This document shows positions 23,657 through 46,503 of a stretch of 64,000 bases of DNA, piece after piece. The translations under genes and the position numbers were made by a program. A model generated the notes under the pieces. It was not told where the DNA came from. It searched no databases and saw only the letters and a list, made by a program, of their open reading frames with translations. Position 1 is the stretch's first letter. Every line of letters starts with the position of its first letter. Origin of the DNA: an uncultured Dehalococcoidales bacterium (GTDB lineage Bacteria > Chloroflexota > Dehalococcoidia > Dehalococcoidales > UBA5627); contig CAYNQR010000005.1 of NCBI GenBank assembly GCA_964399425.1, forward strand, positions 5,883 through 69,882, written 5' to 3'.

Positions 23657-24355
23657 CTAACATTCAACAACCCCCCCTATCACAACACTGCAGCTTGCAA
23701 CTTTATCATCGTGATGTGGTTTGAATTTAAATTGATATGTTCTGATAGATTGGGGATCAATTCCCTCTATCAAAGCTACATTAGTACCGATTATTTCTTT
23801 TCTATAATCGTAAAATGTAGCTACAATTGCCGTATCTGTCTTGATATCGCTTATATTTTTAACAGATCCGGTTACTTCCTCTTCTCCGAACTCGTTAGTT
23901 TTCGTGAAGTTTCTTCTGAATTGAACCCTTTCAATGTCCGCCGTAATTACCCGTAATACTTTAATTGCGTAACTTTTTACCATATCGTGTAAACTTGCAT
24001 TTGAAGCACGTATAACAACACCACGGCTTACACCCGGTTTTAACTCAACTTCTATATGTTCAACTTTATCCAGAATGTTGCCTTCCTCGTCATAAAATGT
24101 AGCCTCAAGTAATACAGTGGCAATTGTTGAATCCGTAATATTTCTTATAGCAGTATCAATACTAGGTGGTTTCCCCGAATCTTTCGCTAACGGAGAGAAT
24201 TCAATAAGACTGTGTTTTAGAATAATAACCTGATCAGAATCAGTGATACACGGAACATTAGTTTCCATTCCAACAATCCCACCGGCATCCCCCGGTTTTT
24301 CTTCCAACTCGCTCTTATTTACATTTAGCAGCTTTTTATCTTCTTTTGTGGACAA
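23657..24355 (-). CDS. hypothetical protein with two tandem FxLYD-like beta-sandwich repeats
   Basis: Two internal repeats: IRNITDSTIATVLLEATFYDEEGNIL... and VKNISDIKTDTAIVATFYDYRKEIIG... No signal peptide or TM. Confidence 0.55.
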   Translation of the reverse strand: MSTKEDKKLLNVNKSELEEKPGDAGGIVGMETNVPCITDSDQVIILKHSLIEFSPLAKDSGKPPSIDTAIRNITDSTIATVLLEATFYDEEGNILDKVEHIEVELKPGVSRGVVIRASNASLHDMVKSYAIKVLRVITADIERVQFRRNFTKTNEFGEEEVTGSVKNISDIKTDTAIVATFYDYRKEIIGTNVALIEGIDPQSIRTYQFKFKPHHDDKVASCSVVIGGVVEC

Positions 24356-24457: not shown

Positions 24458-25096
24458 TTATCCTTGCCTTCCCGATTTTCGAACTTCTCTGGGCTGACTT
24501 TTACCCAGGGTCATATTTACGATCCAGCGCCAGTGCTGGATAACATGTATTATAATTATTGCCAGCATTAATATAGCTACCCAGGCATGAATGTCCAGCC
24601 ACTCGTTCCTCTGCAACCCCCAGAAAGTGCGGCCGATTCCGGATACCATATTATTGTAGTCCAACATCCCCCTCGGTAAAACAAGCCAGATAACACAGCC
24701 TGACAACACCTGAAAAGCAGTCATGATGAACAATACAAAGTTAGTAATATAGCGTTCCAGTATTGCTTTTTGACGTGTTGCAAAGTAGTCTTTAACCTTT
24801 ATAGCAGTCTCAACAATCCACCGCCAGTTAGTTGCCATATGCAAGAAAACAATAAATATAGCCGCAACTGATAACCATGAGTGAATATCAACCCACATAT
24901 ATCGTGGTAATTGAAATATCCTCAAGTAGTTACCTGCCTGTCCTAAACCCAATTGTAGACAATGATAACCTCCATGTTCGCCAACACCCCTTGGTATAAC
25001 AAACCAAAGTATATAACTTGATATGATGACAGCTATAAATATGCATATCAGAAGCAAGACAATTGCATAATTACCATAATTTCTATACTTCACCAT
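24458..25096 (-). CDS. DUF4405-like integral membrane protein (internally duplicated, conserved His pairs)
   Basis: Two homologous halves, each with (V/L)(I/L)PRG, W(V/L)DIH(S/A)W and H..(T/Q)(N/H)WRWIV. Four or more TM segments. The start lies 3 nt after the stop of the upstream radical SAM gene. Confidence 0.65.
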   Translation of the reverse strand: MVKYRNYGNYAIVLLLICIFIAVIISSYILWFVIPRGVGEHGGYHCLQLGLGQAGNYLRIFQLPRYMWVDIHSWLSVAAIFIVFLHMATNWRWIVETAIKVKDYFATRQKAILERYITNFVLFIMTAFQVLSGCVIWLVLPRGMLDYNNMVSGIGRTFWGLQRNEWLDIHAWVAILMLAIIIIHVIQHWRWIVNMTLGKSQPREVRKSGRQG

Positions 25097-25099: not shown

Positions 25100-26788
25100 T
25101 CAACCGAATGCCAGCTTCTGTCTTATGTTTTTATAATATCCATATTCATCAAAACATTCTTCAGAAGATTGCATTAGAGATTCAATGGCTGTGATCAGAG
25201 ACGACAATCTGGCATTCCTTTCAGTTTCATCAGCTATATCCATGATATTATCCACTTCATCAGCAGCTATCCTTTCAAGCTTGGTTTGAATCCGGTCAGC
25301 GATTGCCAGGCTATCATGATAATATATCCTGTATTTCTCTGATTCATTGATAGAATAATGCAAAGATTCAAATATAAGCTCTATCAGCCCCTTTTTATCA
25401 AGCAAATCCGTTTCATGGTTGAGCCACTGATGCCATGATGGTTTGGACAAGGCATTTATATACTCCTCAAGATCCCTGAAGAGAAGTTTATAACCATGCT
25501 TTTCAGGTTGATCAAAAGCCAAGGATCCGGGGTCTATAATTATCGGGCCGACAATTGGAGTAGGGACATAGTGCTCAATATACTTGAAACTCTTTTTTTG
25601 AATAGCAACATGGTCAAGCATACAAAGCTCATCCCAGAGTTCCCATGTTTTTTTAATAGTAGTTGAGTCTTCACCAGCCAACCCTACTGAAAAGAAAACT
25701 GTTACCGGAATATGGTATTTATGACAAAGTTTGACTGTATCCAGCAGTTCTTCGGTTGTATAATTTCTTCCTTGCCTTTTTCGTACAGAACAAGAACCTG
25801 AATCCGGACAGATATATAGAAGCACCTTTCGGCCAATAGCCGCTACTTCTTTGATAAAGCTCTCGCCGGCGGGTGCAAGGAGATCAATTGACAATTGAAC
25901 ATCCTCTGGTATTTCCCGGTGAAGTATGGCCATTAATTCCCTCCAGTAACTTTCACCGCCCATGCGCGGGTCTTGGTAAAGCCCAATAAATTTAATGCCC
26001 TGTTGACGGAGTTGCCGTATGTCATCAGCAATTTTAACAGGGCTTCTAAAAGAAGGCCTGAGCATCCCCATGTATTTTTTGTAACTGTAGGACGATGCTC
26101 CACAGGTAGTACAGTTATAAATACAACCTCGACAGACAACCAGACTTCCATGCGGCTCCTTATCCTCAGTAAATATGGAGGTTTTAGGTTCTAATAAATC
26201 GAAACGGGTGAAGTTAAACTCATCGAGATCGCAAGATGTTTCCATAAGAGGAGTTACCTTTATTTCTCCACTCTGCAAACGATAAGTTAGATTAGGAGTA
26301 TTTCCAATCCTGTTGTTTCTTTTTAAATCTTTAATGAAATGCAGTAGCGGTTTTTCCGCTTCTCCTCTGATCACTGCATCCACAAAGTTATATTTAGCTA
26401 TTATTTCCTGGTGGAAATAGGTAGCCGTAAGCCCTCCTAATATAATCAGTGAATCAGGATGCAACTCTTTACATAGTCTCGCAACTTCAATAGCACCCTG
26501 AGCATGGTGATGCCAATGCAGATCAATACCAAATATCTTGGCCGAGAGATTTTTCAGATGTTTTTTGACGTCAAATTCGGCATCGGCAGTCATCCGGTCG
26601 GCCAGATTATCGATTATGACCTTGTAACCAAAAGAATCGAGATAATTAGCAATGCTAATCATACCTATCGGAACTTTAACAAACTGGATACGTTCCACTG
26701 TAGAACCGAGAGGACCCGGAAACAGAGGTTTTTTGCGAAAATCAAAGATTGCCGGAGGATGAATTAGTATAATATCGTAATCTGTCAT
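25100..26788 (-). CDS. B12-binding-domain radical SAM protein (class B type), paralogue 2
   Basis: N-terminal Rossmann-like YDIILIHPPA...PIGMISIANYL, a radical SAM motif C-IYN-C-TT-C with an extra upstream Cys, and a long C-terminal domain. Aligns over most of its length with the ORF at 26930..28489. Confidence 0.75.
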   Translation of the reverse strand: MTDYDIILIHPPAIFDFRKKPLFPGPLGSTVERIQFVKVPIGMISIANYLDSFGYKVIIDNLADRMTADAEFDVKKHLKNLSAKIFGIDLHWHHHAQGAIEVARLCKELHPDSLIILGGLTATYFHQEIIAKYNFVDAVIRGEAEKPLLHFIKDLKRNNRIGNTPNLTYRLQSGEIKVTPLMETSCDLDEFNFTRFDLLEPKTSIFTEDKEPHGSLVVCRGCIYNCTTCGASSYSYKKYMGMLRPSFRSPVKIADDIRQLRQQGIKFIGLYQDPRMGGESYWRELMAILHREIPEDVQLSIDLLAPAGESFIKEVAAIGRKVLLYICPDSGSCSVRKRQGRNYTTEELLDTVKLCHKYHIPVTVFFSVGLAGEDSTTIKKTWELWDELCMLDHVAIQKKSFKYIEHYVPTPIVGPIIIDPGSLAFDQPEKHGYKLLFRDLEEYINALSKPSWHQWLNHETDLLDKKGLIELIFESLHYSINESEKYRIYYHDSLAIADRIQTKLERIAADEVDNIMDIADETERNARLSSLITAIESLMQSSEECFDEYGYYKNIRQKLAFG

Positions 26789-26929: not shown

Positions 26930-28489
26930 TCACCTTTTATCAGGATCAACCTCACTCATTACACGTTTAACCACATCTATTGCTTCCCTGTTGCCCTTTA
27001 TGTACCGGTTGAGAGCATCATCAACTTCGGCTCTGGTGTATATACCATATTTACCCCTCAGATTAATAGAAAATTCTATTGAGTCGATAAATAGCTCGGC
27101 ATTCGAATATTTGTCTAAAAAACGCGTTTCATACGATATCCATTGAGGCCACACCAATTGCGACATGCCATGGACATAGTCTTCAAGGTTTTTAAATATC
27201 AAACGATATCCGTGTTTATCTGGAAAATCAAATGAGGGTGAACCCGGGTCAAGCAGTATCATTGGCCCGAAAGCATAACTAAAAGGCGCTTTATTATCAC
27301 TCCTGGAATTTGTTAGGCAAATAAGCTCCCAGAATTTCCAGGTTTTTTTAATAGTATCAGGGGTATCATTTGCCAGTGAAATCATTGTATGAATTCCTAA
27401 AGGAATATCATATTTCTTGCACAGCTTCGCAAAGTTTAAGATCTCATCATTTGTATAATCACGCCCATGGATTTTTCTTATGCTGTCTACTCCTGACTCA
27501 GGCGAGATGGTAATAACGATTGGTAAACCGCTTTTGGATAGTTTTTTCAAAAAATCTTCGCCTGCAGGGCGAAAAACTTCAATTGTTATTTCTTCCGGCT
27601 TAACTTTCAGGTTTTTTAAAGCAGTAATAAGCTTGCTTACATATTCATTGCCTCCCATATTGGGGTCTTGCGCAAGAAATACCATTCCGACTCCTTGACT
27701 GACAAGTTTTTCTATATCTTCAGCTATTTTAGCCGGACTTCGAAAAGCAGGTTTGTGCCTGCCCAGGTATTTCTTATAGCTGTAGGCTGACCCACCACAT
27801 GAGACGCAATTATGCAAACACCCACGGCAAACAGGTATAGTCCAATGAGGCGCCCAACCCGGTCCGAAGATGGCTCCTTTAGGTTCGATCAAATCAAAAC
27901 GTGTATATTCGAATTCGTCTAAATCTTTGACCGGTTCCATCAAAGGATTAATATTTGTTTTACCTGTAGTATGGCGAAAAGTAAGATTAGGGACATCTTC
28001 CAGGGTTTGATTGCCTTCGAGTGTTTTCATCAATTTTAAAAAAGGTTTTTCAGCTTCTCCGCGAATCACAATATCTACAAACTCACTTTTATGTATAATT
28101 TCCTCGTGGAAAACGGTAGCAGTCAATCCTCCCATAATAACAATGGCTTCCGGATGCAACTTCTTACATAGCCGCGCCAACTCAATAGCTCCCTGGCAAT
28201 GCACACACCAATTAAGACCAATGGCAAATATTTTGGCTGAGAGCCTGCTAATGTGTGCTTCAACATCAAAATCCAAGTCCTTTATCATCCGCTCGCCTAT
28301 ATTGTCGACAATAACTCTGTATCCGTTTTTGTCAAGATAATCGGCAATACTGAGCATACCAATCGGTGGGATTATAAATTGTTCGGTGCTTTCACATACC
28401 GTATGACCTATCGGACCGGGAAAAATCGGCTTCTTACGGAAATCATAAATTGCCGGCGGGTGTATTAATATAACATCATAATTATTCAT
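26930..28489 (-). CDS. B12-binding-domain radical SAM protein (class B type), paralogue 1
   Basis: YDVILIHPPA...PIGMLSIADYL and a radical SAM motif C-LHN-C-VS-C. Same architecture as the neighbouring paralogue. Confidence 0.75.
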   Translation of the reverse strand: MNNYDVILIHPPAIYDFRKKPIFPGPIGHTVCESTEQFIIPPIGMLSIADYLDKNGYRVIVDNIGERMIKDLDFDVEAHISRLSAKIFAIGLNWCVHCQGAIELARLCKKLHPEAIVIMGGLTATVFHEEIIHKSEFVDIVIRGEAEKPFLKLMKTLEGNQTLEDVPNLTFRHTTGKTNINPLMEPVKDLDEFEYTRFDLIEPKGAIFGPGWAPHWTIPVCRGCLHNCVSCGGSAYSYKKYLGRHKPAFRSPAKIAEDIEKLVSQGVGMVFLAQDPNMGGNEYVSKLITALKNLKVKPEEITIEVFRPAGEDFLKKLSKSGLPIVITISPESGVDSIRKIHGRDYTNDEILNFAKLCKKYDIPLGIHTMISLANDTPDTIKKTWKFWELICLTNSRSDNKAPFSYAFGPMILLDPGSPSFDFPDKHGYRLIFKNLEDYVHGMSQLVWPQWISYETRFLDKYSNAELFIDSIEFSINLRGKYGIYTRAEVDDALNRYIKGNREAIDVVKRVMSEVDPDKR

Positions 28490-28679: not shown

Positions 28680-29276
28680 TTAGCGATCCTTGCCCACAAT
28701 CAAATTGCGAACTAAAGCAAGAACCAGAAGCAAAGCCCCAGCTGCACAAGCCAACCAGTATCCTATTAAAATATCCGATTGGCCACCGCTGGCCATTCCG
28801 CCTCCCAGATCAAGATAGAAGAAGCCCCGGAAAGGAGTATCAAAAAGTGCTGCCGTTTTTGTCGATATCATATATACAGCTGCCAGAGCAACGACAATAT
28901 ATGAAAAGCCTACAATTCCTATAATTAAATTAGGTACTCCGATTCTAAGCTTTCCTATTGTAAACCCTTTACTTTTAATAAACAGTCCAACTAGAATTGC
29001 CGCAACAGCTATTCCAAAATATACCCACATCACTGAAGTAAACCAAGCCGGCATATTCTGGGCTTCAACCTGGTTCGTAAAAATACCTATGGCTGCCGGA
29101 TCGTACCAAAGTCCATAGGGATAGACCTCAGCCACTACTTTCCTGAGCTCATAAATCTCGGTAAACCACCAGGGTTGAAGAAAACTGTACACCATTAAGC
29201 CCCCGGCCAGCAAAACCAGTACACGAAATATCCAGGATCTTACACCTCCTCCCAGGGAAAACCAATTACCTATCAT
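28680..29276 (-). CDS. integral membrane protein, putative anchor subunit of the Mo enzyme (no His residues)
   Basis: About 5 hydrophobic segments. No histidine in 198 aa, so heme b ligation is unlikely. It follows the FeS subunit gene after a 27-nt gap on the same strand. Confidence 0.55.
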   Translation of the reverse strand: MIGNWFSLGGGVRSWIFRVLVLLAGGLMVYSFLQPWWFTEIYELRKVVAEVYPYGLWYDPAAIGIFTNQVEAQNMPAWFTSVMWVYFGIAVAAILVGLFIKSKGFTIGKLRIGVPNLIIGIVGFSYIVVALAAVYMISTKTAALFDTPFRGFFYLDLGGGMASGGQSDILIGYWLACAAGALLLVLALVRNLIVGKDR

Positions 29277-29303
29277 ATATCACTCCTTTTCCAGAAAACA
29301 TAA

Positions 29304-30113
29304 CTAAGATAATGCTATCTCCCCGAGCCCGATATCCTTTTCAACCGTGCTTACTGACATCGTCTTGGTTTTGCCGTCTTTGCTGATTGTCAATGTGAAT
29401 TCAGCAGCCGGTAGATCATGGAACCAGAAATCACCGAAGTTATCGGTAGTGGCATTATAAGTGCTGCCTCCACCGGTAAGAGTGCAATTGGCCCCTATGA
29501 CAACTTCTTTTGCTCCGGGATCATAGACCAATCCGGCAACGAATCTTTTAGGTAAGCCCATGTAGTACACACGGGTATTGGGGGTGTCGCCGAAATCAGG
29601 CTTTAACCTTTCTGCGCTGGAAATAAGCCCACTGAGTTCAGACTGCTCACCAAATTTAATATTTTCGTGCGGACAGAAATCAGCACACCTCGGCTCTTTC
29701 CATTTATTATCCAGCAGATGTGCGCAGCCGGTGCATTTCTGCGCCAGGTGAAGAGCTGCGTTGTAGTAAATACTACCATAGGGACAGGTATTCAAACAGT
29801 TCTGGCATCCGGTGCATTTTGCCGGATCTATTATGACCAAGCCGTCACTTCGCTCATATATGGCACCATCTACTGGGCAAGCTGCTTTACAAGGAGCATT
29901 TTCGCAATGCTGGCAGGGCACAAACACATGGGATATCCTGACTTGAGGGATTTGCCCCCTCTCATAATAATTCAGTTTACCCCAAAACTGTCCTGTGTCC
30001 GGCTGCGGTTTAGCATAGGGCGACCAGTCATTGCCGCAATGCTCATCTTTGCAGGATATTTGGCAACCATAGCAACCACTACAGTGTGCGACATCTATAA
30101 CAAAAGCTTTCAT
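29304..30113 (-). CDS. 4Fe-4S ferredoxin-type beta subunit with C-terminal Ig/carboxypeptidase-regulatory-like domain
   Basis: Cys groups CSGCYGCQISC, CQHCENAPCKAACP, CTGCQNCLNTCP and CTGC...CADFCP. The C-terminal beta-rich domain (VVIGANCTLTGGGSTYNATTDNFGDFWFHDLPAAEFTLTISKDG) has the architecture known for the pyrogallol transhydroxylase small subunit. Confidence 0.75.
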   Translation of the reverse strand: MKAFVIDVAHCSGCYGCQISCKDEHCGNDWSPYAKPQPDTGQFWGKLNYYERGQIPQVRISHVFVPCQHCENAPCKAACPVDGAIYERSDGLVIIDPAKCTGCQNCLNTCPYGSIYYNAALHLAQKCTGCAHLLDNKWKEPRCADFCPHENIKFGEQSELSGLISSAERLKPDFGDTPNTRVYYMGLPKRFVAGLVYDPGAKEVVIGANCTLTGGGSTYNATTDNFGDFWFHDLPAAEFTLTISKDGKTKTMSVSTVEKDIGLGEIALS

Positions 30114-30117
30114 TTAA

Positions 30118-33072
30118 CTACTTACCTCCTTCAAGCCAGGCTTCCACAGTAAGACCGGCACCAGAATCATAACTCCTAGAGAACTCTTCGGGATATTTGC
30201 GTCGCATTTCCTCATATTCGTTTCCGCTCAGTTTTTCGACCGCAACCAAAAAACCGCTTGAGACCATACCGGTGCAATTCTTGGATAATCCGTTCTCCGG
30301 ACAAATAACGTTATTATCTCCTCCACGGTTTACCCATTTATGTTCTCTTTCCGCAAAATCATCATCATCGAATCCCAACATATCCAATCTTGCGCCATGA
30401 TCCTGATACACGGAACCTGGAATTATCCTCTCGGTCACATGTGCAGCGCCCCAGGTCGTTCCTCTTTCGTTGTGCATCTTGCAGATGTCCCCTGCCTGTA
30501 TTCCTCTTGCAGCAGCATCCGATGGATGTAGCCAGATCGGTTCATATAAATACCCGTCAGGACCTTTAACTTTGCAGGTCGGTATTTCTCTGAACCAGGT
30601 CACATCATCATACTGGTTGTGTACACGCCATCTGGGATGGTTAGATACTATTACCAATGGATACTTCCCGGCTCTTTCACTGACCTTGTAGTTCTCGTTA
30701 TGCCACCAACCTTCTTCAGGGGGACCACCCACAACATGATGCGGGAAGGGAGCTCTTTCACGATCATCCGGGAAGTGCTCAGCAAGCCTGGCTGAATAGA
30801 ACTCCAGCTTGCCGGAAGGTGTTTGCAGTGGATTCTTGCCGGGATCTTCATAGAACGGGCGCATCATGCGTGCTCTGGCAGGCCAGTCCTGGTTAATAGG
30901 AGCAGGTACATATTTCTTCTGCTTCAGATTATTAAAGCTGATATAATCACCGGCTCCAGACCTTTCAAAGCCGAACTCGAGCCATTCATCTACTGTTTTG
31001 CCTCCGGTAACGGCTTCTACCGAACCGGCATATCTTCCGCCATGTTCCTCCAGCTTCTTGGCAATCTCGATAGCTGCCTCATAATCACTCTTTGATTCAC
31101 CTATTGGTTCACAGCATTTATCCCACATAACTAACCCGGGTATTTCCGCACCTGCAGTAAGAATATCCGGTGTTTCTGCGGCAGTAGTAATCGGTAAAAG
31201 AATGTCAGCACAGGTTGCTTCATTCTCCATCCAGATTGCTTGTATGGCATAGCATTCGATCTTAGGATCTCTGATGGCATGCAGGAACTTGTAGCCATCA
31301 TTCCAACAAACACACATGCAGGCATAGTCTTGATAAATCATGTGGAATTGTCCGCCACCCTGCTCCGCAGGCCAGGGATACTCATATTTTACAAATTGTT
31401 CTGCAGTTGGACGTGCACGGGATGTAGAGCCCCACTGTTCGGTCTTCCCTTCCAGTATGGCTTTATGGATTAGCATCTTAGAAAAAAGCTGGAACGGCTT
31501 GTCTGCCATACCGTATCCGCCGCCTCTTTGTGCAGCCCCGGGAGAGAAACCTGGTCTTGCCGGAGGTCCTCCTGGAGTATCCATTTGTTGCCGGCCCGGT
31601 GCTCCCAGTCCCTGCATTCCCATAACAACACACATCCACCTTGACCATTCATGGGTATACGGTCCCCTGATAGCGGGGCCACCATTCCCAAGCGCCCAGC
31701 TGGTTCTCTTGGAAGCCCATTCCCTCGCCAATGCCTTAATCGTCCATTCCGATATTCCACACCATTCAGAAGCCCAGGCCGGACTCTTTACGACTCCGTC
31801 TGTTTCTCCCATTACGTATGGCTTGATATAGTCATCAAAACCTATTGAATGAGAGGCAATATAATCCTTATCGTATGAATCTTCTGTTATCCAGGTATGA
31901 ATGATGGCCATTGCCAGTGTCTCATCCTGGCAAGACATAATAGGAATCCATTTATCCGGATGTGCAGCATTCTGATAGTTCAAATCCGGTGCTATATGTA
32001 CGAATTTGATTCCAATATCCTGAAGCCACCGGCAATACTTGGTCGAAAAGTTTCCATTGGACTGCGATGTAGTTAACCAGTCTCCACCGGTTATTACCAG
32101 CATCTCGCAGTGCTCCGCTATTTCGATTTCTTTGTTTGAGTTGGGTTGGATTTTACCGTCCCCGGCATCGGAACCCCAGACATGTTTTGCACCCCAGTAG
32201 TGGCCTTCCCAGCTATCTGCATTTCTCTGTGAGATGGTATAACCTATCCTGTCCATGAACGGCGTGTGCATACCGCCGCCCCAGTTCTTGTGAATAGTTC
32301 CCATCTCCCGGTGAGCCGAATCTGATTTATTCAGTATTGCCATATCGCCATATTTTTCCCAGATTCTTACCATCTCGCCGGCAATTATATCTGTGGCTTC
32401 ATCCCAGGAAATCCTTTTGTACTTACTTATGCCGCGATTCTGAGGATTGATTTTTGCAGAGTCACCACCGGGTTCCCAGTCTACCCGTTTCATCGGATAG
32501 CGAACCCTGTTGGGAGAATAGATGCGTTTCTTGTAACCGAGTTGAAAGTAACTCTGCAAGGTTTTTTTGGGACACTCCAGTGTTTTGCCATGTGCTTCAT
32601 ACTTCCACTGGCTCACAGCCAGATCGGCTTCGGAATATTGTTCGGTATAGTGATATGGTCTGATCCTGACAATTTTACCGTTTTTACTGTCTACTGCAGT
32701 TATATATCGGTGATTCCCGGCAAGCGGTAATACATTGGTAGTAACCGGTTCCTGCCATGGCTCGACTCCACCACTGCCTGGCTGTGTCACTGTTTTAGTT
32801 TCGGTTACTGTAGCTCCACTGCCACCAACCGTCGTAGTCTCGGTAATGGTAACGGCTCCACTGCCGCCAACCGTAGTTGTAACCGTCTTTTCAACCGTCT
32901 TGGTAGTCGTAACAGTCTTAGTTTCGCCGCCGCTACAACTGGAAAGCAATCCTGCACCGACAGCTCCGCCGACAACTACTGTACCCGCACCGACAAGGAA
33001 ATCACGTCTGGATACGTCGCCAGATTGCTTTCCCTCTTCCGTTAAAGTTAATTTCTCTTTTTCTTTTTTCAA
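30118..33072 (-). CDS. molybdopterin oxidoreductase (DMSO reductase family), Tat-lipoprotein, pyrogallol transhydroxylase/resorcinol hydroxylase-like large subunit
   Basis: Twin-arginine SRRDFLVGAG followed by lipobox LLSSC, then a Thr-rich linker. No N-terminal CxxCxxxC FS0 motif. Blocks such as YPMKRVDWEPGG, RISWDEATDII, NADSWEGHYWG and TWITEDSYDKDYI recall transhydroxylase-type large subunits. The likely start is TTG 33072 (SD AGGAGA); the tracked ORF extends to 33114. Confidence 0.75.
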   Translation of the reverse strand: MKKEKEKLTLTEEGKQSGDVSRRDFLVGAGTVVVGGAVGAGLLSSCSGGETKTVTTTKTVEKTVTTTVGGSGAVTITETTTVGGSGATVTETKTVTQPGSGGVEPWQEPVTTNVLPLAGNHRYITAVDSKNGKIVRIRPYHYTEQYSEADLAVSQWKYEAHGKTLECPKKTLQSYFQLGYKKRIYSPNRVRYPMKRVDWEPGGDSAKINPQNRGISKYKRISWDEATDIIAGEMVRIWEKYGDMAILNKSDSAHREMGTIHKNWGGGMHTPFMDRIGYTISQRNADSWEGHYWGAKHVWGSDAGDGKIQPNSNKEIEIAEHCEMLVITGGDWLTTSQSNGNFSTKYCRWLQDIGIKFVHIAPDLNYQNAAHPDKWIPIMSCQDETLAMAIIHTWITEDSYDKDYIASHSIGFDDYIKPYVMGETDGVVKSPAWASEWCGISEWTIKALAREWASKRTSWALGNGGPAIRGPYTHEWSRWMCVVMGMQGLGAPGRQQMDTPGGPPARPGFSPGAAQRGGGYGMADKPFQLFSKMLIHKAILEGKTEQWGSTSRARPTAEQFVKYEYPWPAEQGGGQFHMIYQDYACMCVCWNDGYKFLHAIRDPKIECYAIQAIWMENEATCADILLPITTAAETPDILTAGAEIPGLVMWDKCCEPIGESKSDYEAAIEIAKKLEEHGGRYAGSVEAVTGGKTVDEWLEFGFERSGAGDYISFNNLKQKKYVPAPINQDWPARARMMRPFYEDPGKNPLQTPSGKLEFYSARLAEHFPDDRERAPFPHHVVGGPPEEGWWHNENYKVSERAGKYPLVIVSNHPRWRVHNQYDDVTWFREIPTCKVKGPDGYLYEPIWLHPSDAAARGIQAGDICKMHNERGTTWGAAHVTERIIPGSVYQDHGARLDMLGFDDDDFAEREHKWVNRGGDNNVICPENGLSKNCTGMVSSGFLVAVEKLSGNEYEEMRRKYPEEFSRSYDSGAGLTVEAWLEGGK

Positions 33073-33189
33073 TTTTTTATTTCTCCTTTCATAGATTCTA
33101 ATTAAATAACACAAGTTGTTTAATAGGCATCCCCTCCTTTTTGACTGCTGACATTGATATAAATATAATTTAACGATTAACCTCAGAAT

Positions 33190-33576
33190 TTAGTCATTAT
33201 TCGATTGGCTTTCCCATTTACTTCGTCTTATAATTGCCCTTAATCTTGCTGCAAATATATTTTTATTGAAAGGTTTTATAATAAAACTATTTGCGCCGGA
33301 ATCCAGAGCTCTTTCGAGTAACTGGATATCTCTGTCATGGGAAACAAATATTATTGGAATGTCGTTATCCTCCCTAATTTGCTTAACCAATTCACAACCT
33401 GACATATCAGATAATTTTAAGCCTATAATTATTGCTTCATGCACTTCATTACTTCTTATATCATTAAGACATTTTTTACCTGAAGAATAAATTTCTACTT
33501 TACAATCGTATTGAAATATTTCAATAGCCTGTTTTATATCATCGATAGCATTGGCGTCGGTATCCGCAATTATCAT
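33190..33576 (-). CDS. single-domain response regulator (CheY-like receiver)
   Basis: Receiver hallmarks: LSDMSG (phospho-Asp), FVSHD and IIKPF. No output domain. Confidence 0.75.
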   Translation of the reverse strand: MIIADTDANAIDDIKQAIEIFQYDCKVEIYSSGKKCLNDIRSNEVHEAIIIGLKLSDMSGCELVKQIREDNDIPIIFVSHDRDIQLLERALDSGANSFIIKPFNKNIFAARLRAIIRRSKWESQSNND

Positions 33577-33905: not shown

Positions 33906-34592
33906 TCAACTTTGTCCATTGGTATTAAAGTAATAACCGATACCGGATTTAGTAATAATCACGTTTTTGTTACCTGTGCGAGATTCTATTTTATTACGAA
34001 TACGTTGAATGTGCACCCTAAGTGCATTTTCCTCCCCGGGGTAATAGTTGCCCCAAATGTTGTTATATAGATTATTATAGGCGACCACATTCCCCTTGTT
34101 AATTAAAAGTAGATAAAGAATTTGGGATTCAATATTTGTCAGATATATTATTTTCTCTTCATATATTAATTGTCTCTTGGATAAACTGAAATTATATAGC
34201 CCGATTTTTAGATATTCCTGTTCATACAGGTTTGTTTTCTTCATAACATTGTTAACACGGGCGAGAAACTCAAGATGGCGGAATGGTTTGGAAATATAAT
34301 CATTTGCTCCTAATTCAAGTGCTTTAACAATATCACGTTCTTCTCCTCTAACTGTCAATACAATAACTGGTACATTAGAAAATAAACGCAACCTTCTTAA
34401 GACTTCAAATCCATCGATATCAGGTAATCCCAAATCAAGAATAACGAGGTCCGGATTTTCTTTTTCAGCAGTATCTAGCCCCTCTTCACCAAATTTAGAT
34501 GATAATAATAATATGTCTGGTCGGCTGACCTTAAATATCAAAGTAACAATCTCAATGGATCCGAGATCATCTTCAATTATTAAGACTTTCAT
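33906..34592 (-). CDS. OmpR/PhoB-family response regulator (pair 1)
   Basis: REC (IIEDD, ILDLGLPDIDG, SKPF) plus a winged-helix C-terminus (ALRVHIQRIRNKIE). Adjacent to the kinase gene, with a 1-nt gap. Confidence 0.85.
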   Translation of the reverse strand: MKVLIIEDDLGSIEIVTLIFKVSRPDILLLSSKFGEEGLDTAEKENPDLVILDLGLPDIDGFEVLRRLRLFSNVPVIVLTVRGEERDIVKALELGANDYISKPFRHLEFLARVNNVMKKTNLYEQEYLKIGLYNFSLSKRQLIYEEKIIYLTNIESQILYLLLINKGNVVAYNNLYNNIWGNYYPGEENALRVHIQRIRNKIESRTGNKNVIITKSGIGYYFNTNGQS

Positions 34593-34593
34593 T

Positions 34594-37500
34594 TTACTGC
34601 TCCTGTGTTCTATCTAAAACGTCCGGACGCTTTATAGGTATGTAAAAACTAAAAACACTGCCCTTGCCCTTTTGGCTTTTAAACCATATTCTACCTTTAT
34701 GAAGTTCTATTGTCTGTTTAACTAGTGATAGACCGATTCCCAATCCACTGAGTCTGCTTCTTTCACTGTTCAATCGACTATATGGTTTAAATATATACTT
34801 TTTCTCATCATCGTCTATGCCACAACCGGTATCAATTACACTAATAATAATATTTTGAGTTTTTTTAGCTTTAATTACAACAGTTCCATTTCTGGGAGTA
34901 TATTTAAAAGCATTATTTAAAAGATTTAATATCGCTTGTTTTATACGTTCTTCGTCACATTGAATAACAGGCAAATCCGGGTCAATTTCCAGTAACAAAT
35001 TTAACTCGTTTTTCTCAGCCTCGATTTTGGTATTTTTATATATTTCCAATAACAAACCTTGAATATCTACGGAACTATATTCCAATTGTAGAATGCCGAC
35101 TTCCATGCGAGCAATGTCCAGAAGTATATCAATCTTATCTGAGAGATTTATAGCGCTGGTGTTAATACTTCTAGCAAAACTTAATAATGGCTCCTCTCGG
35201 ATACTTGAAACCAGATAATCGCTTGCAGCCACCAAAGGGTTGAGAGGGGTTTTCAATTCATGAACTAACGCTCTGGTATATTTTATTCGGTTATCTATCT
35301 CATCTGCCAGTTTCTGTTCTGTTTTTTCAAGTAAGTGAATCTCTTTTTGTAATTCTAATGTTTTATTATCTAGTTCGGCAGTACGTTGGGAGACCTGCAT
35401 TTCGAGTATTTGTGCATGCCTAAATAAAGACCTTGTTCTGAACTTAATAAACGCTGCTACTGTTAGTAATGCTACAGCGATTAAGAAAAGTATAAACCAC
35501 CACTCCTGCCAAAACGGGGGTGTAATTATTATGATGAGCGATGCTCCTTCTTCATTCCAAATACCGTCCTTGTTACTAGCTATAACTCTAAAAATATATT
35601 CTCCACCAGGTATATTAGTATATTTAGCGATACGCTGATTTGCCCCGCTATATTGCCAATCCGAATCAAAACCATCCAATTTATAAGCATACATATTGTT
35701 ATACTGAGAGGAATAGTCCAAAGCGATAAAATTAATTATAAAAGAGTTATCAGAATAAGCTAAAGTAACCTCTTTTACTTCTTCGATAGGTTTGTCCAAT
35801 GACACCGGATTACCGTCAACAAGGTGAAAATCCTTTATATAGACTGGGGGGATATAAGTATCGATTTCAATTTTATCGGGGTAAAATGAAAATATTCCAT
35901 TAGTAGTACCGATAAAAATAGCTCCCTCTTCATTTTTGGCTATGGAGTTACGATAATTGATATACCCTCTAAGTCCATGGTCAAATCTATAGCTATTAAT
36001 GACATTAGAATCTGGAGAAATGCTATTAATTGTATTTTTTGTAGTTACCCATATTTTACCAGAATTATCTTCAATGATTCCTAAAATATGATTATCCGAA
36101 AGACCCTCTCTAATTGTATATGATGTGAAATTCCCCTCTTCTCTATTATATTTAAATAATCCGTCAATAGTACCTATCCATAAATTGTTGCTGCTATCTT
36201 CATATATGCTTTCTACCTGGCAACCAATAAACTCCACAAAACTTTGTGGTTCTTTAAAATAATGAATAAATTCTCCGTTTTCTGTATCATATCTATCCAA
36301 TCCATTGTTGGTACCCAACCACAGTTCATTATTACTGGTACCATATATTATATTAATTATATCGCCGATTATACTTGTTGAATCATCAGGGTTATGATTA
36401 TATCGAGTGAAAATATTGTTTTCATAGTCAAAATTGCAAAGCCCATCGTTTGTACCTATCCATAACAGATCAGTAACAGGGCATTGATACATTGTTCGAA
36501 CAGTACCATTTGAAATACTGTTGGGATTAAGTGGTTCATAATTATATATTGAATAATCAAATGTCTCCATGTCTATTCTTAGTAAACCTAATTGGCTTGT
36601 TCCTACCCACAAAAACCCTCTTTTGTCCATGTAAATACAATAAACTATAGCTGCGTCGATTTCTCCTGTTAACGATTTAAAGTCAATTAACTCTTCTATA
36701 GCTCTTCCATTACAGGCGAAATTCATAATGCTATTTAATCCGCCTAATAGCAATGTATTCTCAAAATTGTATATTGATCTAATCTCGTTATTTTTGATAG
36801 GGATATCATAGCGATAGTTGAAATGCTGCTTATCTGGATCGATGAAATACACCCCTTCCCTTGTCCCAATCCATAGTATGCCTTGTTCGTCTTCATAAAT
36901 AGCAAGTATACTGTTATTACCGATACTGCTGAGATTATCAGAGTCATAAAAATAACTGGTAAATACTCCGGTTTCCCGATCAAACGAGTTAAATCCATTT
37001 TCTGTACCAATCCATAATTTCCCGAATCTGTCTTCATATATCGCAGTAATATAGTTATCACTGATACTACCGGGATCATCGGGGTCATGAAAATAACCGG
37101 TAAATACTCCGGTTTCCCGATCAAACGAGTTAAGTCCATTTTCTGTTCCAAGCCACAATATTCCCCGACTGTCTACATAAACGCTTCGAATCCTATTATT
37201 ACTAATACTATCGGGATTATCCGGATTAAAAAAATAACTGGTAAATACTCCGGTTTCCCGATCAAACGAGTTAAGTCCATTTGCAGTTCCCAACCATAAT
37301 ATTCCCTGCCTATCTTCACAAATGCTTCTAATTCTATTATTACTAATACTATCGGGGTTATCCGGATCAAAATAATATCCGGTAAAAATACCGGTTTCTC
37401 GGTCAAACAAGTTTAGTCCATTTGAAGTACCAACCCATAGATTTTGATAGCTATCCTGATAAATAGACCTTATATGGTTGTCACTTACAGTTGTCAAATC

Positions 37501-37941
37501 GAAATACTCATTGAATAATCCCTTAAAGCCTTTAGATTTATCATCATAATAAAATAAACCATTCATGGTTCCAATCCAAAGAGTCTTATAACTATCCATG
37601 TAAATAGACCAAACATTGTTAAAAACATGATTATCCAAAGTACTTATTTCTTCAACATCACTACTATCATATTTAAATAAATAGCCATTTCCTCCGAACC
37701 ACAAATAACCGTAATGATCTTGTTCTATAGAATAAACAGGATTATCTGATAATACTTTATCTTTATCAAGTTTACTGAATACAACATTATTCTCAGACAA
37801 TATGGAATTAGCTTCTAATGAAATAATAGGGAAAGCACATAATGAAGCTAATAAACAAAATAGTGAAAATATAAATACAATTGTCACTGATTTTATTTTT
37901 ATCTTTCTTGAATTAATATTCATCTGTATAACACAAGACAT
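34594..37941 (-). CDS. sensor histidine kinase with extracytoplasmic double beta-propeller (Reg_prop repeats) and Y_Y_Y domain (pair 1)
   Basis: N-terminal TM, many roughly 47-aa repeats (LW(I/L)GT.NGL..FD...G.F), a YYY-type domain (YAYKLDGFDSDWQY...GEYIFRVIASNKDG), a second TM, H-box VHELKTPL and HATPase G-boxes. Confidence 0.85.
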   Translation of the reverse strand: MSCVIQMNINSRKIKIKSVTIVFIFSLFCLLASLCAFPIISLEANSILSENNVVFSKLDKDKVLSDNPVYSIEQDHYGYLWFGGNGYLFKYDSSDVEEISTLDNHVFNNVWSIYMDSYKTLWIGTMNGLFYYDDKSKGFKGLFNEYFDLTTVSDNHIRSIYQDSYQNLWVGTSNGLNLFDRETGIFTGYYFDPDNPDSISNNRIRSICEDRQGILWLGTANGLNSFDRETGVFTSYFFNPDNPDSISNNRIRSVYVDSRGILWLGTENGLNSFDRETGVFTGYFHDPDDPGSISDNYITAIYEDRFGKLWIGTENGFNSFDRETGVFTSYFYDSDNLSSIGNNSILAIYEDEQGILWIGTREGVYFIDPDKQHFNYRYDIPIKNNEIRSIYNFENTLLLGGLNSIMNFACNGRAIEELIDFKSLTGEIDAAIVYCIYMDKRGFLWVGTSQLGLLRIDMETFDYSIYNYEPLNPNSISNGTVRTMYQCPVTDLLWIGTNDGLCNFDYENNIFTRYNHNPDDSTSIIGDIINIIYGTSNNELWLGTNNGLDRYDTENGEFIHYFKEPQSFVEFIGCQVESIYEDSSNNLWIGTIDGLFKYNREEGNFTSYTIREGLSDNHILGIIEDNSGKIWVTTKNTINSISPDSNVINSYRFDHGLRGYINYRNSIAKNEEGAIFIGTTNGIFSFYPDKIEIDTYIPPVYIKDFHLVDGNPVSLDKPIEEVKEVTLAYSDNSFIINFIALDYSSQYNNMYAYKLDGFDSDWQYSGANQRIAKYTNIPGGEYIFRVIASNKDGIWNEEGASLIIIITPPFWQEWWFILFLIAVALLTVAAFIKFRTRSLFRHAQILEMQVSQRTAELDNKTLELQKEIHLLEKTEQKLADEIDNRIKYTRALVHELKTPLNPLVAASDYLVSSIREEPLLSFARSINTSAINLSDKIDILLDIARMEVGILQLEYSSVDIQGLLLEIYKNTKIEAEKNELNLLLEIDPDLPVIQCDEERIKQAILNLLNNAFKYTPRNGTVVIKAKKTQNIIISVIDTGCGIDDDEKKYIFKPYSRLNSERSRLSGLGIGLSLVKQTIELHKGRIWFKSQKGKGSVFSFYIPIKRPDVLDRTQEQ
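36859..37422. repeat. four tandem 141-bp units (47-aa propeller blades) inside the kinase gene
   Basis: The 42-nt block GGTAAATACTCCGGTTTCCCGATCAAACGAGTTAAGTCCATT is identical at 37099-37140 and 37240-37281. A copy at 36958-36999 has one mismatch, and a diverged copy sits at 37381-37422. Spacing is exactly 141 nt. Confidence 0.85.
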
Positions 37942-38358
37942 AATCCAGTATTCGCCCCGAAATAGTAGTTGCTATTATGAGTTTTTTATTTTCTAGAAAT
38001 GATCATACAGTAACAGAAATGATTGTGAAATGGCTATGAAATTTAAGGTAATGGTATACTAATTTTAAACAGAGGTCAATAGCAGATTCCTGAACTTTTG
38101 CATTGTACATTCTTCTCTTTAATTGTTCAATGAATCCATTAATCCATATTTATGAGATGATTACTTATAAGACATTTTTAGACATAACTATAAAATTTAT
38201 ACGGGATTTTCTCTTCATCCAGAATGTCCTGAAATTCACTAAAAGCTGACTGATGTTTATAATATCTTAGTTTAGGGATACCAATGGTTCCATTTTCTCA
38301 AATAAAGGTTGAGTGATGTCAGATTAAGTCAAGACTACTACATCTATATATTTATATA

Positions 38359-39042
38359 TCATGACGGTATAGATAATATATATCCTTGAGAAACCATAGT
38401 AAAGATATATTTAGGATTGGCAGGGTCTTCTTCTATTTTATTGCGAAGTCGTTTCATATATACTCTTATGGCTTCTTCGGAACCGGGATATTCCCTACCC
38501 CACAGAGCTTGAGCAAGTCTGTAATAAGTTACAACGGAATTGGCATTATTCATTAATTCGGCAAAGATTACGCATTCACTTCTTGTAAGAGAAATGTGTT
38601 TTTCGTTATATAATAATTCATGTTTGTAGGCATTTAACTGAAATTTTCCCTTTGTAAGAGAGGCTTTTTCAGCTAATATATCCAGTTTGTGTGTATTAGC
38701 TTTTATTCTGGCAATCAATTCCATCTGTCTAAAGGGTTTTACGATATAATCATTTGCTCCCAATCCTAATCCGGTAACTACATCCGCTTCTTCGCCACGG
38801 ATTGTTAAAATAATTACCGGCACATTTGAATATTGTCGTATTTGTTTTAGCACATCGAATCCATTAATATCAGGTAATCCAAGGTCAAGGATAACAATAT
38901 CCGGAGAAACTTCGTCCACCAATTGAATTCCTTCTTCTCCTAAACGTGTGGGTATAAACTCCGCCTCAGGCCAACATAACTTGAAGGTCATGGCTAATGA
39001 TTCCAGAATACGTTTGTCGTCATCAACAACAAGTATTTTCAT
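38359..39042 (-). CDS. OmpR/PhoB-family response regulator (pair 2)
   Basis: Paralogue of 33906..34592 (VVDDD, ILDLGLPDING, VKPF, AIRVYMKRLRNKIE). Confidence 0.85.
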   Translation of the reverse strand: MKILVVDDDKRILESLAMTFKLCWPEAEFIPTRLGEEGIQLVDEVSPDIVILDLGLPDINGFDVLKQIRQYSNVPVIILTIRGEEADVVTGLGLGANDYIVKPFRQMELIARIKANTHKLDILAEKASLTKGKFQLNAYKHELLYNEKHISLTRSECVIFAELMNNANSVVTYYRLAQALWGREYPGSEEAIRVYMKRLRNKIEEDPANPKYIFTMVSQGYILSIPS

Positions 39043-39083
39043 TTTAATATCTCCTCCTGTTGACTACTGAGATATAAATGTTC

Positions 39084-44505: not shown

Positions 44506-44594
44506 AACCTCTTAAAAAATCTATAAATTTATAGGGTTGAAAACTGCTGGTGAGGGTCTGAAATTTCAGATTCTCACCAGTATATATCTTGTAG

Positions 44595-46485: not shown

Positions 46486-46503
46486 TATTTTGGAGGTTAC
46501 AGA

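Follow-up and report, generated by a model that had tools for sequence, protein, structure and literature searches.

A putative exported, electron-wired molybdoenzyme of the AthL/RhL branch in a Dehalococcoidales bacterium

Three adjacent genes on the reverse strand of a 64,000-nucleotide stretch of DNA from an uncultured Dehalococcoidales bacterium (the window) encode the alpha, beta and gamma subunits of a putative molybdoenzyme. The cluster is best explained as an inducible, electron-wired extracytoplasmic (de)hydroxylase with an external, probably phenolic, substrate, an account in which, taken as a whole, we place about even confidence. The alpha subunit is a member of a large, uncharacterised family in sediment Chloroflexota, and the gene clusters of this family look like inducible respiratory enzyme clusters. 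In an initial annotation of this DNA, the enzyme was read as exported and acting on an external, possibly phenolic, compound, either in a redox-neutral manner or with a connection to the membrane. The former part of that interpretation is retained: because the equivalents of AthL His144, Asp174, Ser175 and Trp176 at the Mo site are conserved, an external substrate and (de)hydroxylation are still the best guess. The redox-neutral option finds no support, given the full four-cluster beta subunit, the absence of the AthL pocket residues and the presence of a membrane redox protein in most exported operons.

The catalytic body of alpha (30118..32763, reverse strand) is assigned as an AthL-like Mo-bisPGD subunit from domain, sequence and structure comparisons. 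Both PF00384 (Molybdopterin, 68 bits) and PF01568 (Molydop_binding, 48 bits) score over cutoff. Among solved relatives, AthL is the best match (E 1.9e-101, 344 bits), as compared with DorA at 193 bits (E 4e-56) and acetylene hydratase at E 1.5e-6. The AF2 model (catalytic body pLDDT 81) returns 4v4c_A as its top Foldseek match (E 1.3e-64, TM 0.85) in a list of bis-PGD enzymes throughout, with type III DMSO reductases as the second-best structures (E ~1e-52). The AthL-like first domain, PF21423, reaches 25.8 bits against a cutoff of 27 and is recorded for many close homologues. The best NCBIfam models, bisC_fam, dmsA_ynfE and TorA, all score far under their cutoffs (e.g. 287 vs 1017 bits). The sequence comparisons thus support membership of alpha in the AthL/RhL branch, as initially proposed, and a placement in a well-characterised tetrathionate, polysulfide or DMSO reductase clade, which had been named as evidence to the contrary, was not found; by sequence and fold, no characterised DMSO, TMAO, Psr, Ttr or Nar enzyme comes closer than AthL. 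An NJ tree of the best 120 homologues together with AthL and DorA places Pelobacter acidigallici AthL outside the whole group of 120; it is star-like with Tat and non-Tat forms interleaved, and so cannot say whether export arose once.

The active site retains the metal-proximal features of AthL and not the residues of its substrate pocket. The N-terminal Cys motif for an FS0 [4Fe-4S] cluster is absent from alpha, as had been noted, with C167 the sole Cys between C46 and residue 322. The sequence blocks that the initial annotation had recognised are truly common to alpha and AthL (YPMKR, RISWDEATD, DSWEG and EDSYDK). We take the Ser of the D-S-W-E motif to be the Mo ligand of AthL and His144 to be part of its active site. 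Alpha His254 (codon 32311..32313) corresponds to AthL H144, Asp286-Ser287-Trp288 (32209..32217) to D174-S175-W176, and E289 to E177. In a 30-sequence alignment H254, D286, S287 and E289 are invariant and W288 nearly so, and equivalents of all five are kept in nearly all of the best 120 homologues. AthL R153, W354, Y404 and Y560 presumably line the substrate and co-substrate sites. Pairwise alignment replaces R153, W354 and Y560 with Gly, Gly and Glu and puts Y404 opposite either Ala or a gap, according to the alignment used; in the multiple alignment, all four sit in AthL-specific insertions. DorA (DMSO reductase) Y114 and W116 align pairwise with Asp and His. Judged from its sequence, the enzyme does not qualify as a pyrogallol transhydroxylase proper (EC 1.97.1.2), an assignment set aside on the missing pocket residues, the four-cluster beta and the Tat signal and lipobox. 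Assignment to the DMSO/TMAO reductase family was also rejected, with models far under cutoffs and the Tyr114/Trp116 equivalents replaced, as was membership among the catechol dehydroxylases, a clade separate from transhydroxylase (acetylene hydratase only E 1.5e-6 vs 1.9e-101 for AthL).

The N-terminus of alpha carries an export and anchoring module. The ORF spans 33114..30118 (reverse strand) and likely starts at a TTG at 33072, 8 nt downstream of a GAAAGGAG ribosome-binding site; from this codon, the product is the 984-aa NCBI protein P0001 at 100% identity. Residues 1-46 (32935..33072) comprise a long charged n-region, a twin-arginine motif (SRRDFLVGAG, with RR at residues 22-23, codons 33004..33009), an h-region and a lipobox, LLSS-C46 (Cys46 codon 32935..32937). 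TIGR01409 scores 17.6 bits, above its cutoff of 16.7. A Thr/Val/Gly-rich linker of ~57 residues (47 to ~103; 32764..32934), with 20 Thr, 10 Val and 11 Gly counted over a stretch of 64 residues, joins the lipid anchor to the catalytic domain and agrees with the ~55 aa first estimated. AF2 pLDDT is <50 across residues 1-103, and the linker is kept in kind across homologues. All elements of the exported, lipid-anchored alpha initially described are thus present, suggesting display on the outer face of the cytoplasmic membrane. The module is not a chance feature, because Tat signal, lipobox and T/V linker occur together in 60 of the best 120 homologues, and a further 16 have the Tat signal without the lipobox Cys. 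The same Tat/lipobox/linker arrangement begins a neighbouring FAD_binding_2 flavoprotein.

The beta subunit (29304..30113, reverse strand) combines four complete Cys groups (4 x [4Fe-4S]) with a C-terminal Ig-like beta-sandwich (CarboxypepD_reg, PF13620, 41 bits), just as the initial annotation had it. Its best solved relative is AthS (E 1.2e-50, aligned over residues 4-267); Fer4_11 matches at 76 bits and DMSO_dmsB at 102 bits, the latter under its equivalog cutoff. All 16 Cys of the four clusters are present in beta and in seven homologues, whereas AthS is without four of them, i.e. has lost one cluster. Four Cys groups are also found in the cytoplasmic beta subunits of locus L010 and Geobacter, which makes AthS the exception and means that a full four-cluster wire is not specific to exported forms; it was rejected as a mark of them. 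Beta has no signal peptide of its own and is therefore presumably co-exported with alpha.

Gamma (198 aa; 28680..29276, reverse strand) is, as reported initially, a polytopic membrane protein without His. It has one Cys, four TM helices in an N-in/C-in topology and an extracytoplasmic beta-sheet. No Pfam or NCBIfam model matches it. Word-based searching recovered just eight homologues, so that a profile search was needed to define the family, which has 190 representatives. The AF2 model is of moderate confidence (pLDDT 72), and its Foldseek matches to claudin, TARP and DUOXA1 are weak (E ~1e-4, TM 0.4-0.5). An NrfD/DmsC-like quinol site or haem anchor was considered for gamma and rejected on the lack of a family match, the lack of His and the claudin fold match. 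On this model, gamma is likely to be a non-redox anchor or docking subunit. A promoter and terminator scan found nothing over shuffled background.

A more plausible wire is encoded further downstream. The DUF4405 protein (24458..25096, reverse strand; PF14358, 76.9 bits in two stretches) has four TM helices with an internal repeat that places His pairs in TM2 (His72/His86) and TM4 (His170/His184), making it a candidate di-haem b transmembrane electron wire. Members of this family have been shown experimentally to bind haem b (PMC10979944), and the cluster thus probably does include a haem-linked partner of the molybdoenzyme, contrary to the initial statement that no quinone- or heme-linked partner was obvious. 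Of the two wiring routes first entertained, an unconventional gamma and the DUF4405-like protein, the latter is favoured, since gamma has been modelled with moderate confidence and shows no obvious ligands for a cofactor.

Three further genes accompany this protein. Two B12-binding radical SAM proteins (PF02310, PF04055) are encoded on the reverse strand at 26930..28489 (519-aa subtype, with orthologues in L003 and L012) and at 25100..26788 (562-aa subtype, separated from the DUF4405 gene by 3 nt). Orthologues of the latter follow alpha-beta in L001, L005, L013, L014 and Geobacter sp. AOG1. TIGR04190 scores 375 and 376 bits on the two proteins, under its cutoff of 500, so that by sequence both are related to that family and not members of it. 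These cytoplasmic enzymes may alter the alpha or beta subunit ahead of export, or may work on the compound that the molybdoenzyme uses. The third gene encodes an FxLYD-domain protein (23657..24355, reverse strand; NF038353) with an uncertain start codon and no obvious signal peptide. It has tblastn matches in L001, L003, L004, L007, L009, L012, L013 and L014, whereas the cytoplasmic loci gave none, and by this distribution it is a conserved accessory gene of the exported operons. PDB searches gave no useful relative of the FxLYD protein or of the 562-aa radical-SAM protein (best 9ccb_A, E 7.6e-5), and literature searches on TIGR04190, Ta0216 and FxLYD returned nothing. The B12-radical-SAM partner, the FxLYD-like gene and the tandem paralogue arrays described below were absent from the initial annotation.

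Comparison of ten exported operons with four cytoplasmic loci separates the components of the exported system from those of the wider family. Gamma is present in all ten exported operons and in none of the four cytoplasmic loci. A membrane redox gene occurs in eight of the ten exported operon tails, with an upstream L007 fragment counted as a separate tail: DUF4405 in one, FMN_bind with SGATxSS in six and an FdnI-like cytochrome b in one. The slot occupied here by DUF4405 is thus filled elsewhere by an RnfG-like FMN_bind protein, with SGATISS or TGATxSS motifs in L003, L005, L008 and L012, or by the FdnI-like cytochrome. Within the sequence examined, the main L007 operon and L009 have no such gene. 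One or two radical-SAM genes separate the redox tail gene from gamma. Most exported loci, like cytoplasmic Geobacter, have a B12-radical-SAM gene alongside alpha-beta. Paralogous operons stand in tandem, each with its own two-component system (sensor kinase). The CheY-like single-domain receiver directly upstream of alpha (33190..33576, reverse strand; Response_reg, 66.7 bits), already recognised as preceding the operon, keeps this position in six related loci (L003, L004, L007, L008, L013 and L014). Beyond it, 33906..42341 (reverse strand) encodes two pairs of sensor kinase and OmpR-type regulator, the kinases having an extracytoplasmic Reg_prop propeller and Y_Y_Y domains; the same kinase type adjoins alpha in L003, L004, L007, L013 and L014. 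By their domains, these pairs are presumed to be substrate-sensing regulators. Signal-bearing PF00384 and PF00890 enzymes encoded beside regulators typify respiratory reductase arsenals (10.1101/2022.12.26.521950).

Conserved synteny suggests how these parts would work together. The alpha-beta pair would dock on gamma as a cofactor-free anchor with four TM helices, and the distal Fe-S cluster of beta would exchange electrons with a separate small membrane redox protein, here the DUF4405 di-haem b cytochrome and in sister operons an RnfG-like flavinylated protein or an FdnI-like cytochrome b. Active-site conservation and analogy further suggest an inducible respiratory-type oxidoreductase. Its substrate, which the neighbouring propeller-type histidine kinases would sense, would be external and probably phenolic, and would gain or lose a hydroxyl group. 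A role as terminal reductase appears somewhat more likely than use in the oxidative direction.

The oxidative alternative would be a hydroxylase of the RhLS or 3,5-dihydroxybenzoate hydroxylase type, in which water hydroxylates the external aromatic as a first catabolic step and electrons flow inward from beta to the cytochrome b or flavoprotein and on into the membrane chain. EBDH-type hydroxylases are periplasmic as well, which counts in its favour. The characterised redox-active members of the branch are hydroxylases (PMC10100899), and the Geobacter sp. AOG1 homologue, from an organism with oxidative metabolism, lies behind an IclR regulator and near an Amidohydro_2 gene. We nonetheless consider this reading unlikely: the exported operons share neither a transporter gene nor genes for later catabolic steps, the setting of the host is anaerobic with no high-potential acceptor system in the window, and the layout of tandem paralogues with sensor kinases resembles reductase arsenals. 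Should the enzyme instead be a redox-neutral extracytoplasmic transhydroxylase like P. acidigallici AthLS, its Fe-S clusters would be structural relics and gamma an anchor only. AthL and AthS are indeed the closest solved relatives, and gamma has no cofactor ligands; yet AthL R153, W354 and Y560 have become Gly, Gly and Glu and Y404 Ala or a gap, beta keeps the cluster lost in AthS, and haem or flavin membrane proteins have been acquired specifically by exported operons. Since the exported operons mostly carry a small membrane redox protein, this explanation is very improbable and a haem-linked partner probable.

We also find it improbable that the enzyme is an S-oxide/N-oxide (DMSO/TMAO-type) or other oxo-transfer reductase. 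The JGI automatic name, 'trimethylamine-N-oxide reductase (cytochrome c)', points that way, as do the best NCBIfam models (bisC_fam, dmsA_ynfE, TorA) and the second Foldseek rank of type III DMSO reductases, but the models are far under their cutoffs (e.g. 287 vs 1017 bits), AthL outscores DorA by ~150 bits with DorA Tyr114/Trp116 changed to Asp/His, and AthS is the one solved structure in which a beta subunit has an Ig-like domain. A last alternative concerns the wiring and not the chemistry. The tail redox gene abuts a radical-SAM gene and not gamma, and could for that reason serve the radical-SAM enzyme instead; the radical-SAM, DUF4405 and FxLYD genes would then form a separate unit, and alpha-beta-gamma would be fed by modules encoded elsewhere. 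Candidates lie ~15 kb away in the window: an NrfD (47986..48897), an Fe-S protein resembling HybA/HmcB that has a Tat signal and a C-terminal TM helix (48890..49930) and a penta-haem cytochrome c. This arrangement is quite unlikely, because only exported alpha-beta pairs are accompanied by the tail redox gene, which the cytoplasmic alpha-beta-rSAM cluster of Geobacter lacks, and because in L008 the FMN_bind gene directly follows gamma with no radical-SAM gene between them.

The favoured electron-wired (de)hydroxylase bears some resemblance to several known systems. The characterised transhydroxylase is cytoplasmic and net redox-neutral. AthL/AthS (PgtL/PgtS) of P. acidigallici (PDB 4v4c) provides the best sequence and fold match for alpha and beta, and shares with them an alpha without FS0, the Ser Mo ligand in PDSWEG, the His144/Asp174 equivalents, the C-terminal beta-sandwich of beta and possibly the AthL-like N-terminal domain. 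It differs in its sequence (33-36% identity), its cytoplasmic location as opposed to lipid-anchored export, its three beta clusters instead of four and its R153, W354, Y404 and Y560, equivalents of which are absent here; the window enzyme, unlike AthLS, also has an extra gamma, a membrane redox partner and a radical-SAM partner. RhLS (Azoarcus anaerobius) and DbhLS (Thauera aromatica AR-1), likened here by description, are fellow members of the RhL/PgtL branch of Ser-coordinated MopB enzymes and are reported to be cytoplasmic (PMC10100899). Their net redox reaction needs an electron outlet, and the four-cluster beta suggests similar behaviour here. We know of no lipobox, linker or gamma subunit in either.

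The closest functional analogy is provided by the catechol dehydroxylases of gut actinobacteria, namely Dadh, Hcdh and Cadh of Eggerthella lenta. These Mo-bisPGD enzymes are exported by the Tat route, have a 4Fe-4S subunit and a membrane anchor, are paralogue-rich and substrate-induced, and remove aromatic hydroxyls in a respiratory-type reaction (PMC7028382). These enzymes are of a different clade from alpha (acetylene hydratase, E 1.5e-6), clustering with acetylene hydratase and away from transhydroxylase (PMC7028382). Complex iron-sulfur molybdoenzymes such as DmsABC and PsrABC have the same alpha-beta-gamma layout, Tat export of alpha-beta and four-cluster beta, whereas the window alpha is without FS0 and its gamma is neither NrfD/DmsC-like nor a cytochrome b. 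The placement of DUF4405 or membrane-anchored SGATxSS FMN_bind proteins beside an exported terminal oxidoreductase also recalls flavinylation-associated extracytosolic electron transfer (PMC10979944, PMC8238504). Those systems (FMN_bind; DUF4405, MsrQ-like and PepSY-like cytochromes) differ from the present one in that the window ORFs that were scanned with Pfam include no ApbE flavin transferase. In the literature searched, we found no mention of an AthL-type molybdoenzyme, or of a B12-radical-SAM gene, paired with DUF4405 or FMN_bind carriers.

Since 2013, the AthLS homologues of Chloroflexota from sediments and aquifers have been interpreted as enzymes of cytoplasmic pyrogallol fermentation (PMC3971608, PMC4959651). 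The present comparison indicates that a substantial fraction of these homologues are of another kind: exported, lipid-anchored and electron-wired, expanded in paralogue arrays and with a different pocket. Should these enzymes act on external phenolics as respiratory (de)hydroxylases, models of energy metabolism in abundant subsurface Chloroflexota would change, and an anaerobic route for the transformation of polyphenols and humic matter would be added. The pairing of alpha-beta with a B12-radical-SAM gene across phyla hints at an unrecognised step, either in maturation or in a pathway. The radical-SAM enzyme might modify alpha or beta post-translationally ahead of Tat export, which, if true, would be new for the DMSO reductase superfamily. 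These questions are open to experiment because the family has clear limits and is represented, in its cytoplasmic version, in a cultured Geobacter isolate. In the broadest reading, possible but doubtful as a joint claim, subsurface Chloroflexota (Dehalococcoidia-like) would possess an unrecognised respiratory system made up of islands of AthL-derived molybdoenzymes displayed at the cell surface. Each enzyme would come with an extracellular sensor kinase, a claudin-like anchor, an electron feeder carrying flavin or haem and a dedicated B12-radical-SAM partner, and would have as its electron acceptor a different hydroxylated aromatic moiety of organic matter, dissolved or polymeric (polyphenols, tannins, humics). 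Such islands would be the hydroxyl-group counterpart of the reductive-dehalogenase islands of Dehalococcoides.

The molybdoenzyme genes of the window form a minus-strand cluster headed by a single-domain receiver (33576..33190), followed by alpha, the AthL-like Mo-bisPGD subunit (ORF 33114..30118), beta, the AthS-like Fe-S subunit (30113..29304), gamma, the membrane subunit (29276..28680), two B12-binding radical-SAM genes (28489..26930 and 26788..25100), a DUF4405 gene (25096..24458) and an FxLYD-domain gene (24355..23657). Upstream lie two pairs of a sensor kinase and an OmpR regulator (42341..33906), the kinases bearing Reg_prop propeller and Y_Y_Y domains. In a search of all PDB sequences, the best match to alpha is AthL, the large subunit of pyrogallol-phloroglucinol transhydroxylase (4v4c_A; E 1.9e-101, 344 bits), with type III DMSO/TMAO reductases next (154-194 bits) and lower matches to polysulfide/thiosulfate reductase (60 bits) and acetylene hydratase (E 1.5e-6). 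Modelled with AF2 (pLDDT 81, pTM 0.82), alpha has the same top structural match (E 1.3e-64, TM 0.85), followed by MtsZ, DorA and TorA (E about 1e-52), and beta aligns with AthS over its full length, including the C-terminal beta-sandwich (E 1.2e-50). With AthL closest and all NCBIfam equivalogs far below their cutoffs, alpha does not fall into a well-characterised clade, and the transhydroxylase-like assignment of the initial annotation stands. Catechol dehydroxylases form a separate clade, related to acetylene hydratase (PMC7028382).

Translation of alpha likely starts at a TTG at 33072, behind the site GAAAGGAG, giving a 984-aa protein with 100% identity to the NCBI protein P0001. Residues 1-46, MKKEKEKLTLTEEGKQSGDVSRRDFLVGAGTVVVGGAVGAGLLSSC (32935..33072, minus strand), run from the Tat n-region to the lipobox and hold a twin-arginine motif (TIGR01409 above cutoff) and a canonical lipobox, L-S-S-C. 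The linker behind the lipobox contains 20 Thr, 10 Val and 11 Gly per 64 residues, residues 1-103 are unstructured in the AlphaFold model (pLDDT <50), and no N-terminal Cys cluster was found in alpha. TIGR01409, residue composition and the Cys check bear out the Tat motif, lipobox, Thr/Val/Gly linker and missing FS0 cluster of the initial annotation, and alignment confirms that the four sequence blocks listed there are common to alpha and AthL; its other sequence observations hold as well. The Tat n-region is charged, of unusual length and conserved throughout the family (MKKEQEKLPENEEKKQSGEVSRRDFLVGAG; window alpha and homologues P0002-P0065), and a dedicated chaperone may recognise it.

Among the candidates scored, 3,659 alpha homologues match at E 1e-10 or better; their source names, where given, are mostly Chloroflexota. 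Signal types were split in the best 120 of these (45-54% identity, P0001 aside): 60 have a Tat signal, lipobox and T/V linker, 16 a Tat signal without the Cys, and 44 no signal. The 16 carry GAGITYPLV in place of the lipobox Cys, probably forming an uncleaved signal anchor.

For active-site mapping, AthL residues 20-873 were rebuilt from the HMMER alignment; the residues mapped are those of the AthL active site, with Ser175 as the Mo ligand. AthL His144, Asp174, Ser175, Trp176 and Glu177 correspond to H254, D286, S287, W288 and E289 of alpha, which nearly all of the 120 homologues retain. The first-shell chemistry looks AthL-like: a Mo ligated by Ser, with His and Asp beside it, carries the oxygen of a hydroxyl or phenolate. 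The pocket differs, notably at the presumed co-substrate site. In alpha, Gly, Gly and Glu take the places of AthL Arg153, Trp354 and Tyr560, and Ala or a gap that of Tyr404; all four AthL residues lie inside AthL-specific insertions in the multiple alignment. Second-shell positions (AthL 145, 147 and 179) differ among paralogues. Identity as a pyrogallol transhydroxylase was rejected, since equivalents of these four residues are absent.

All four Cys groups are kept in window beta and seven homologues; in AthS, group II is missing its fourth Cys and group III its first three. In DmsB, C102 of group III is part of FS4, which adjoins the quinol site of DmsC; on this basis the cluster lost by AthS would be the distal one, facing the membrane partner. 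Four-cluster betas also occur in cytoplasmic members (L010 and Geobacter), so that four clusters are the family norm and AthS the outlier; as a specific mark of exported forms, the four-cluster beta was rejected on the same ground. The norm argues that the family as a whole moves electrons.

Gamma, described in the initial annotation as a polytopic membrane protein devoid of His, proves to have four TM helices, no His and one Cys. A profile search of 1.84 billion proteins returned only 190 representatives, all free-standing and about 185-205 aa long. The AF2 model (pLDDT 72, pTM 0.71) comprises four helices and a two-loop extracytoplasmic beta-sheet, and its best PDB matches by Foldseek are claudins, TARPs and DUOXA1 (E about 1e-4, TM 0.4-0.5), a consistent though weak similarity of predicted fold. 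The conserved motifs PWW, PWGL, MPxWF and GYWLAC are aromatic, not cofactor ligands. We read gamma as a putative docking or anchor subunit, not an electron entry point.

Ten exported operons (the window; L001, a Chloroflexi MAG; L003/L004, L005/L006, L007, L008, L009, L012, L013 and L014) were compared with four cytoplasmic loci (L002, Nitrososphaeria archaeon; L010, Moorellaceae; L011; L015/L016, Geobacter sp. AOG1). Gamma is present in 10/10 of the former and 0/4 of the latter, which carry MFS transporters, SDRs or IclR regulators instead. FxLYD-like proteins, too, occur in exported operons only; those of the window, L001, L003, L007, L009, L012, L013 and L014 contain between one and three repeats and lack an obvious signal peptide, and a search of the literature and PDB found nothing on them. 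Most exported operons end with a small membrane redox protein: DUF4405 in the window, an RnfG-like, N-terminally anchored FMN_bind protein with a flavinylation motif in L003, L005, L008, L012, L013 and L014, and an FdnI-like cytochrome b closing the operon tail situated upstream in L007. That three different redox proteins fill this slot across paralogues, and that it is empty in the cytoplasmic alpha-beta-radical-SAM cluster of Geobacter, is the strongest argument, one from synteny, that the slot would serve to connect the exported enzyme to the cell's electron pool. The DUF4405 family has been shown to bind haem b and is a proposed transmembrane electron carrier in extracytosolic systems (PMC10979944). 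The window protein has an internal repeat, with His72/His86 in TM2 and His170/His184 in TM4, a pattern that a transmembrane stack of two bis-His haems would be expected to show. Membrane wiring through DUF4405, initially a remote option, is now favoured on the basis of family haem binding and slot synteny.

The two window B12-radical-SAM proteins represent two subtypes (45-50% mutual identity), both related to TIGR04190 below its cutoff; their homologues bear Dehalococcoidales names. One or both subtypes stand behind alpha-beta-gamma in most exported operons. The cultured isolate Geobacter sp. AOG1 (GCA_019972315.1) encodes, with an IclR regulator (L015 5440..10635), a cytoplasmic AthL-like alpha (870 aa, 44% identity to window alpha) and a four-cluster beta, directly followed by a 55%-identical orthologue of the window's 562-aa radical-SAM protein. 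Since this orthologue accompanies a cytoplasmic pair, the cross-phylum alpha-beta-radical-SAM triad predates export and does not depend on it. A radical-SAM enzyme modifying alpha or beta before Tat export would fit both settings; alternatively, it may act on the same small molecule as alpha-beta. Weighed for both roles was that this enzyme is cytoplasmic and exported alpha-beta works outside.

At least two operon copies occur in one assembly. On one 1.5-Mb contig (ENA ERZ21831104 ctg97406l), at least four paralogous alpha-beta-gamma operons, L013, L007 and L014 among them, stand in tandem within about 70 kb (about 1.264-1.335 Mb), with transposases interspersed. In three of them a Y_Y_Y propeller kinase and a regulator lie immediately upstream, and each of the four examined has its own single receiver. 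The array also encodes a U32-peptidase-like protein, a CxxCxxCC protein, an ArsA-like ATPase and a small T-linker lipoprotein.

Elsewhere in the window, plus-strand genes at 496..9789 may form a hydrogen-sensing regulatory circuit. They encode first a sigma-54-like protein and a histidine kinase with a fused [FeFe]-hydrogenase large-subunit-like domain (1573..3522), then a response regulator of the sigma-54 activator type, an Fe-S/FAD/NAD subunit with a fused receiver, and finally the small and large subunits of a NiFe hydrogenase. A 585-aa Ala/Glu/Lys-rich, coiled-coil-like protein with a C-terminal TM helix (12757..14514, plus) has no Pfam match, and an IS110-family transposase (51497..52444, plus) adjoins a tRNA-Arg (52862..52936, minus).

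AthLS homologues of Chloroflexi are already on record in the literature, where they were read as enzymes of pyrogallol fermentation (PMC3971608, PMC4959651). The literature searched yielded no description of the exported AthL-like lipoprotein form, of the gamma family, of the flavin/haem tail gene, of its operons' pairing with radical SAM or of their tandem arrays.

Divergently transcribed from the cluster, a FAD_binding_2 flavoprotein (42724..44505; flavocytochrome-c/KstD-like, lipobox LLASC) shares with alpha an N-terminus made up of Tat motif, lipobox and T/V linker. Its plus-strand region (42724..51223) continues with a membrane-anchored five-haem cytochrome c (44595..45242), ResB/CcsA, a RibF-like protein, NrfD (47986..48897), a four-cluster Fe-S protein (48890..49930) and RibBA; the Fe-S protein is exported by Tat, anchored by a C-terminal TM helix and has a T-rich insert. 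The region appears to encode another extracytoplasmic reductase, equipped with a quinol-type module of its own. That module (NrfD, Fe-S protein and cytochrome c) could also serve alpha-beta-gamma in trans, and the DUF4405 gene abuts a radical-SAM gene, not gamma; tail-slot synteny points to DUF4405.

A redox-neutral enzyme would be in keeping with AthL and AthS as the closest solved relatives, but is unlikely given the electron transfer for which the four-cluster beta argues. An S/N-oxide reductase is suggested by the second-ranking DMSO/TMAO reductase matches and is also unlikely; alpha has Asp and His at the positions aligned with DMSO reductase Tyr114 and Trp116. An RhLS-like hydroxylase, akin to resorcinol hydroxylase, is a serious rival, set against a reductive direction that we consider somewhat more likely than an oxidative one. 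Signal-bearing PF00384 and PF00890 enzymes beside sensors are a signature of respiratory reductase arsenals (10.1101/2022.12.26.521950). Because of this signature, the tandem operons with kinases and receivers, and the N-terminus shared with the flavoprotein, we favour the reading that the window complex would be an inducible enzyme of respiratory type whose substrate is external and probably phenolic.
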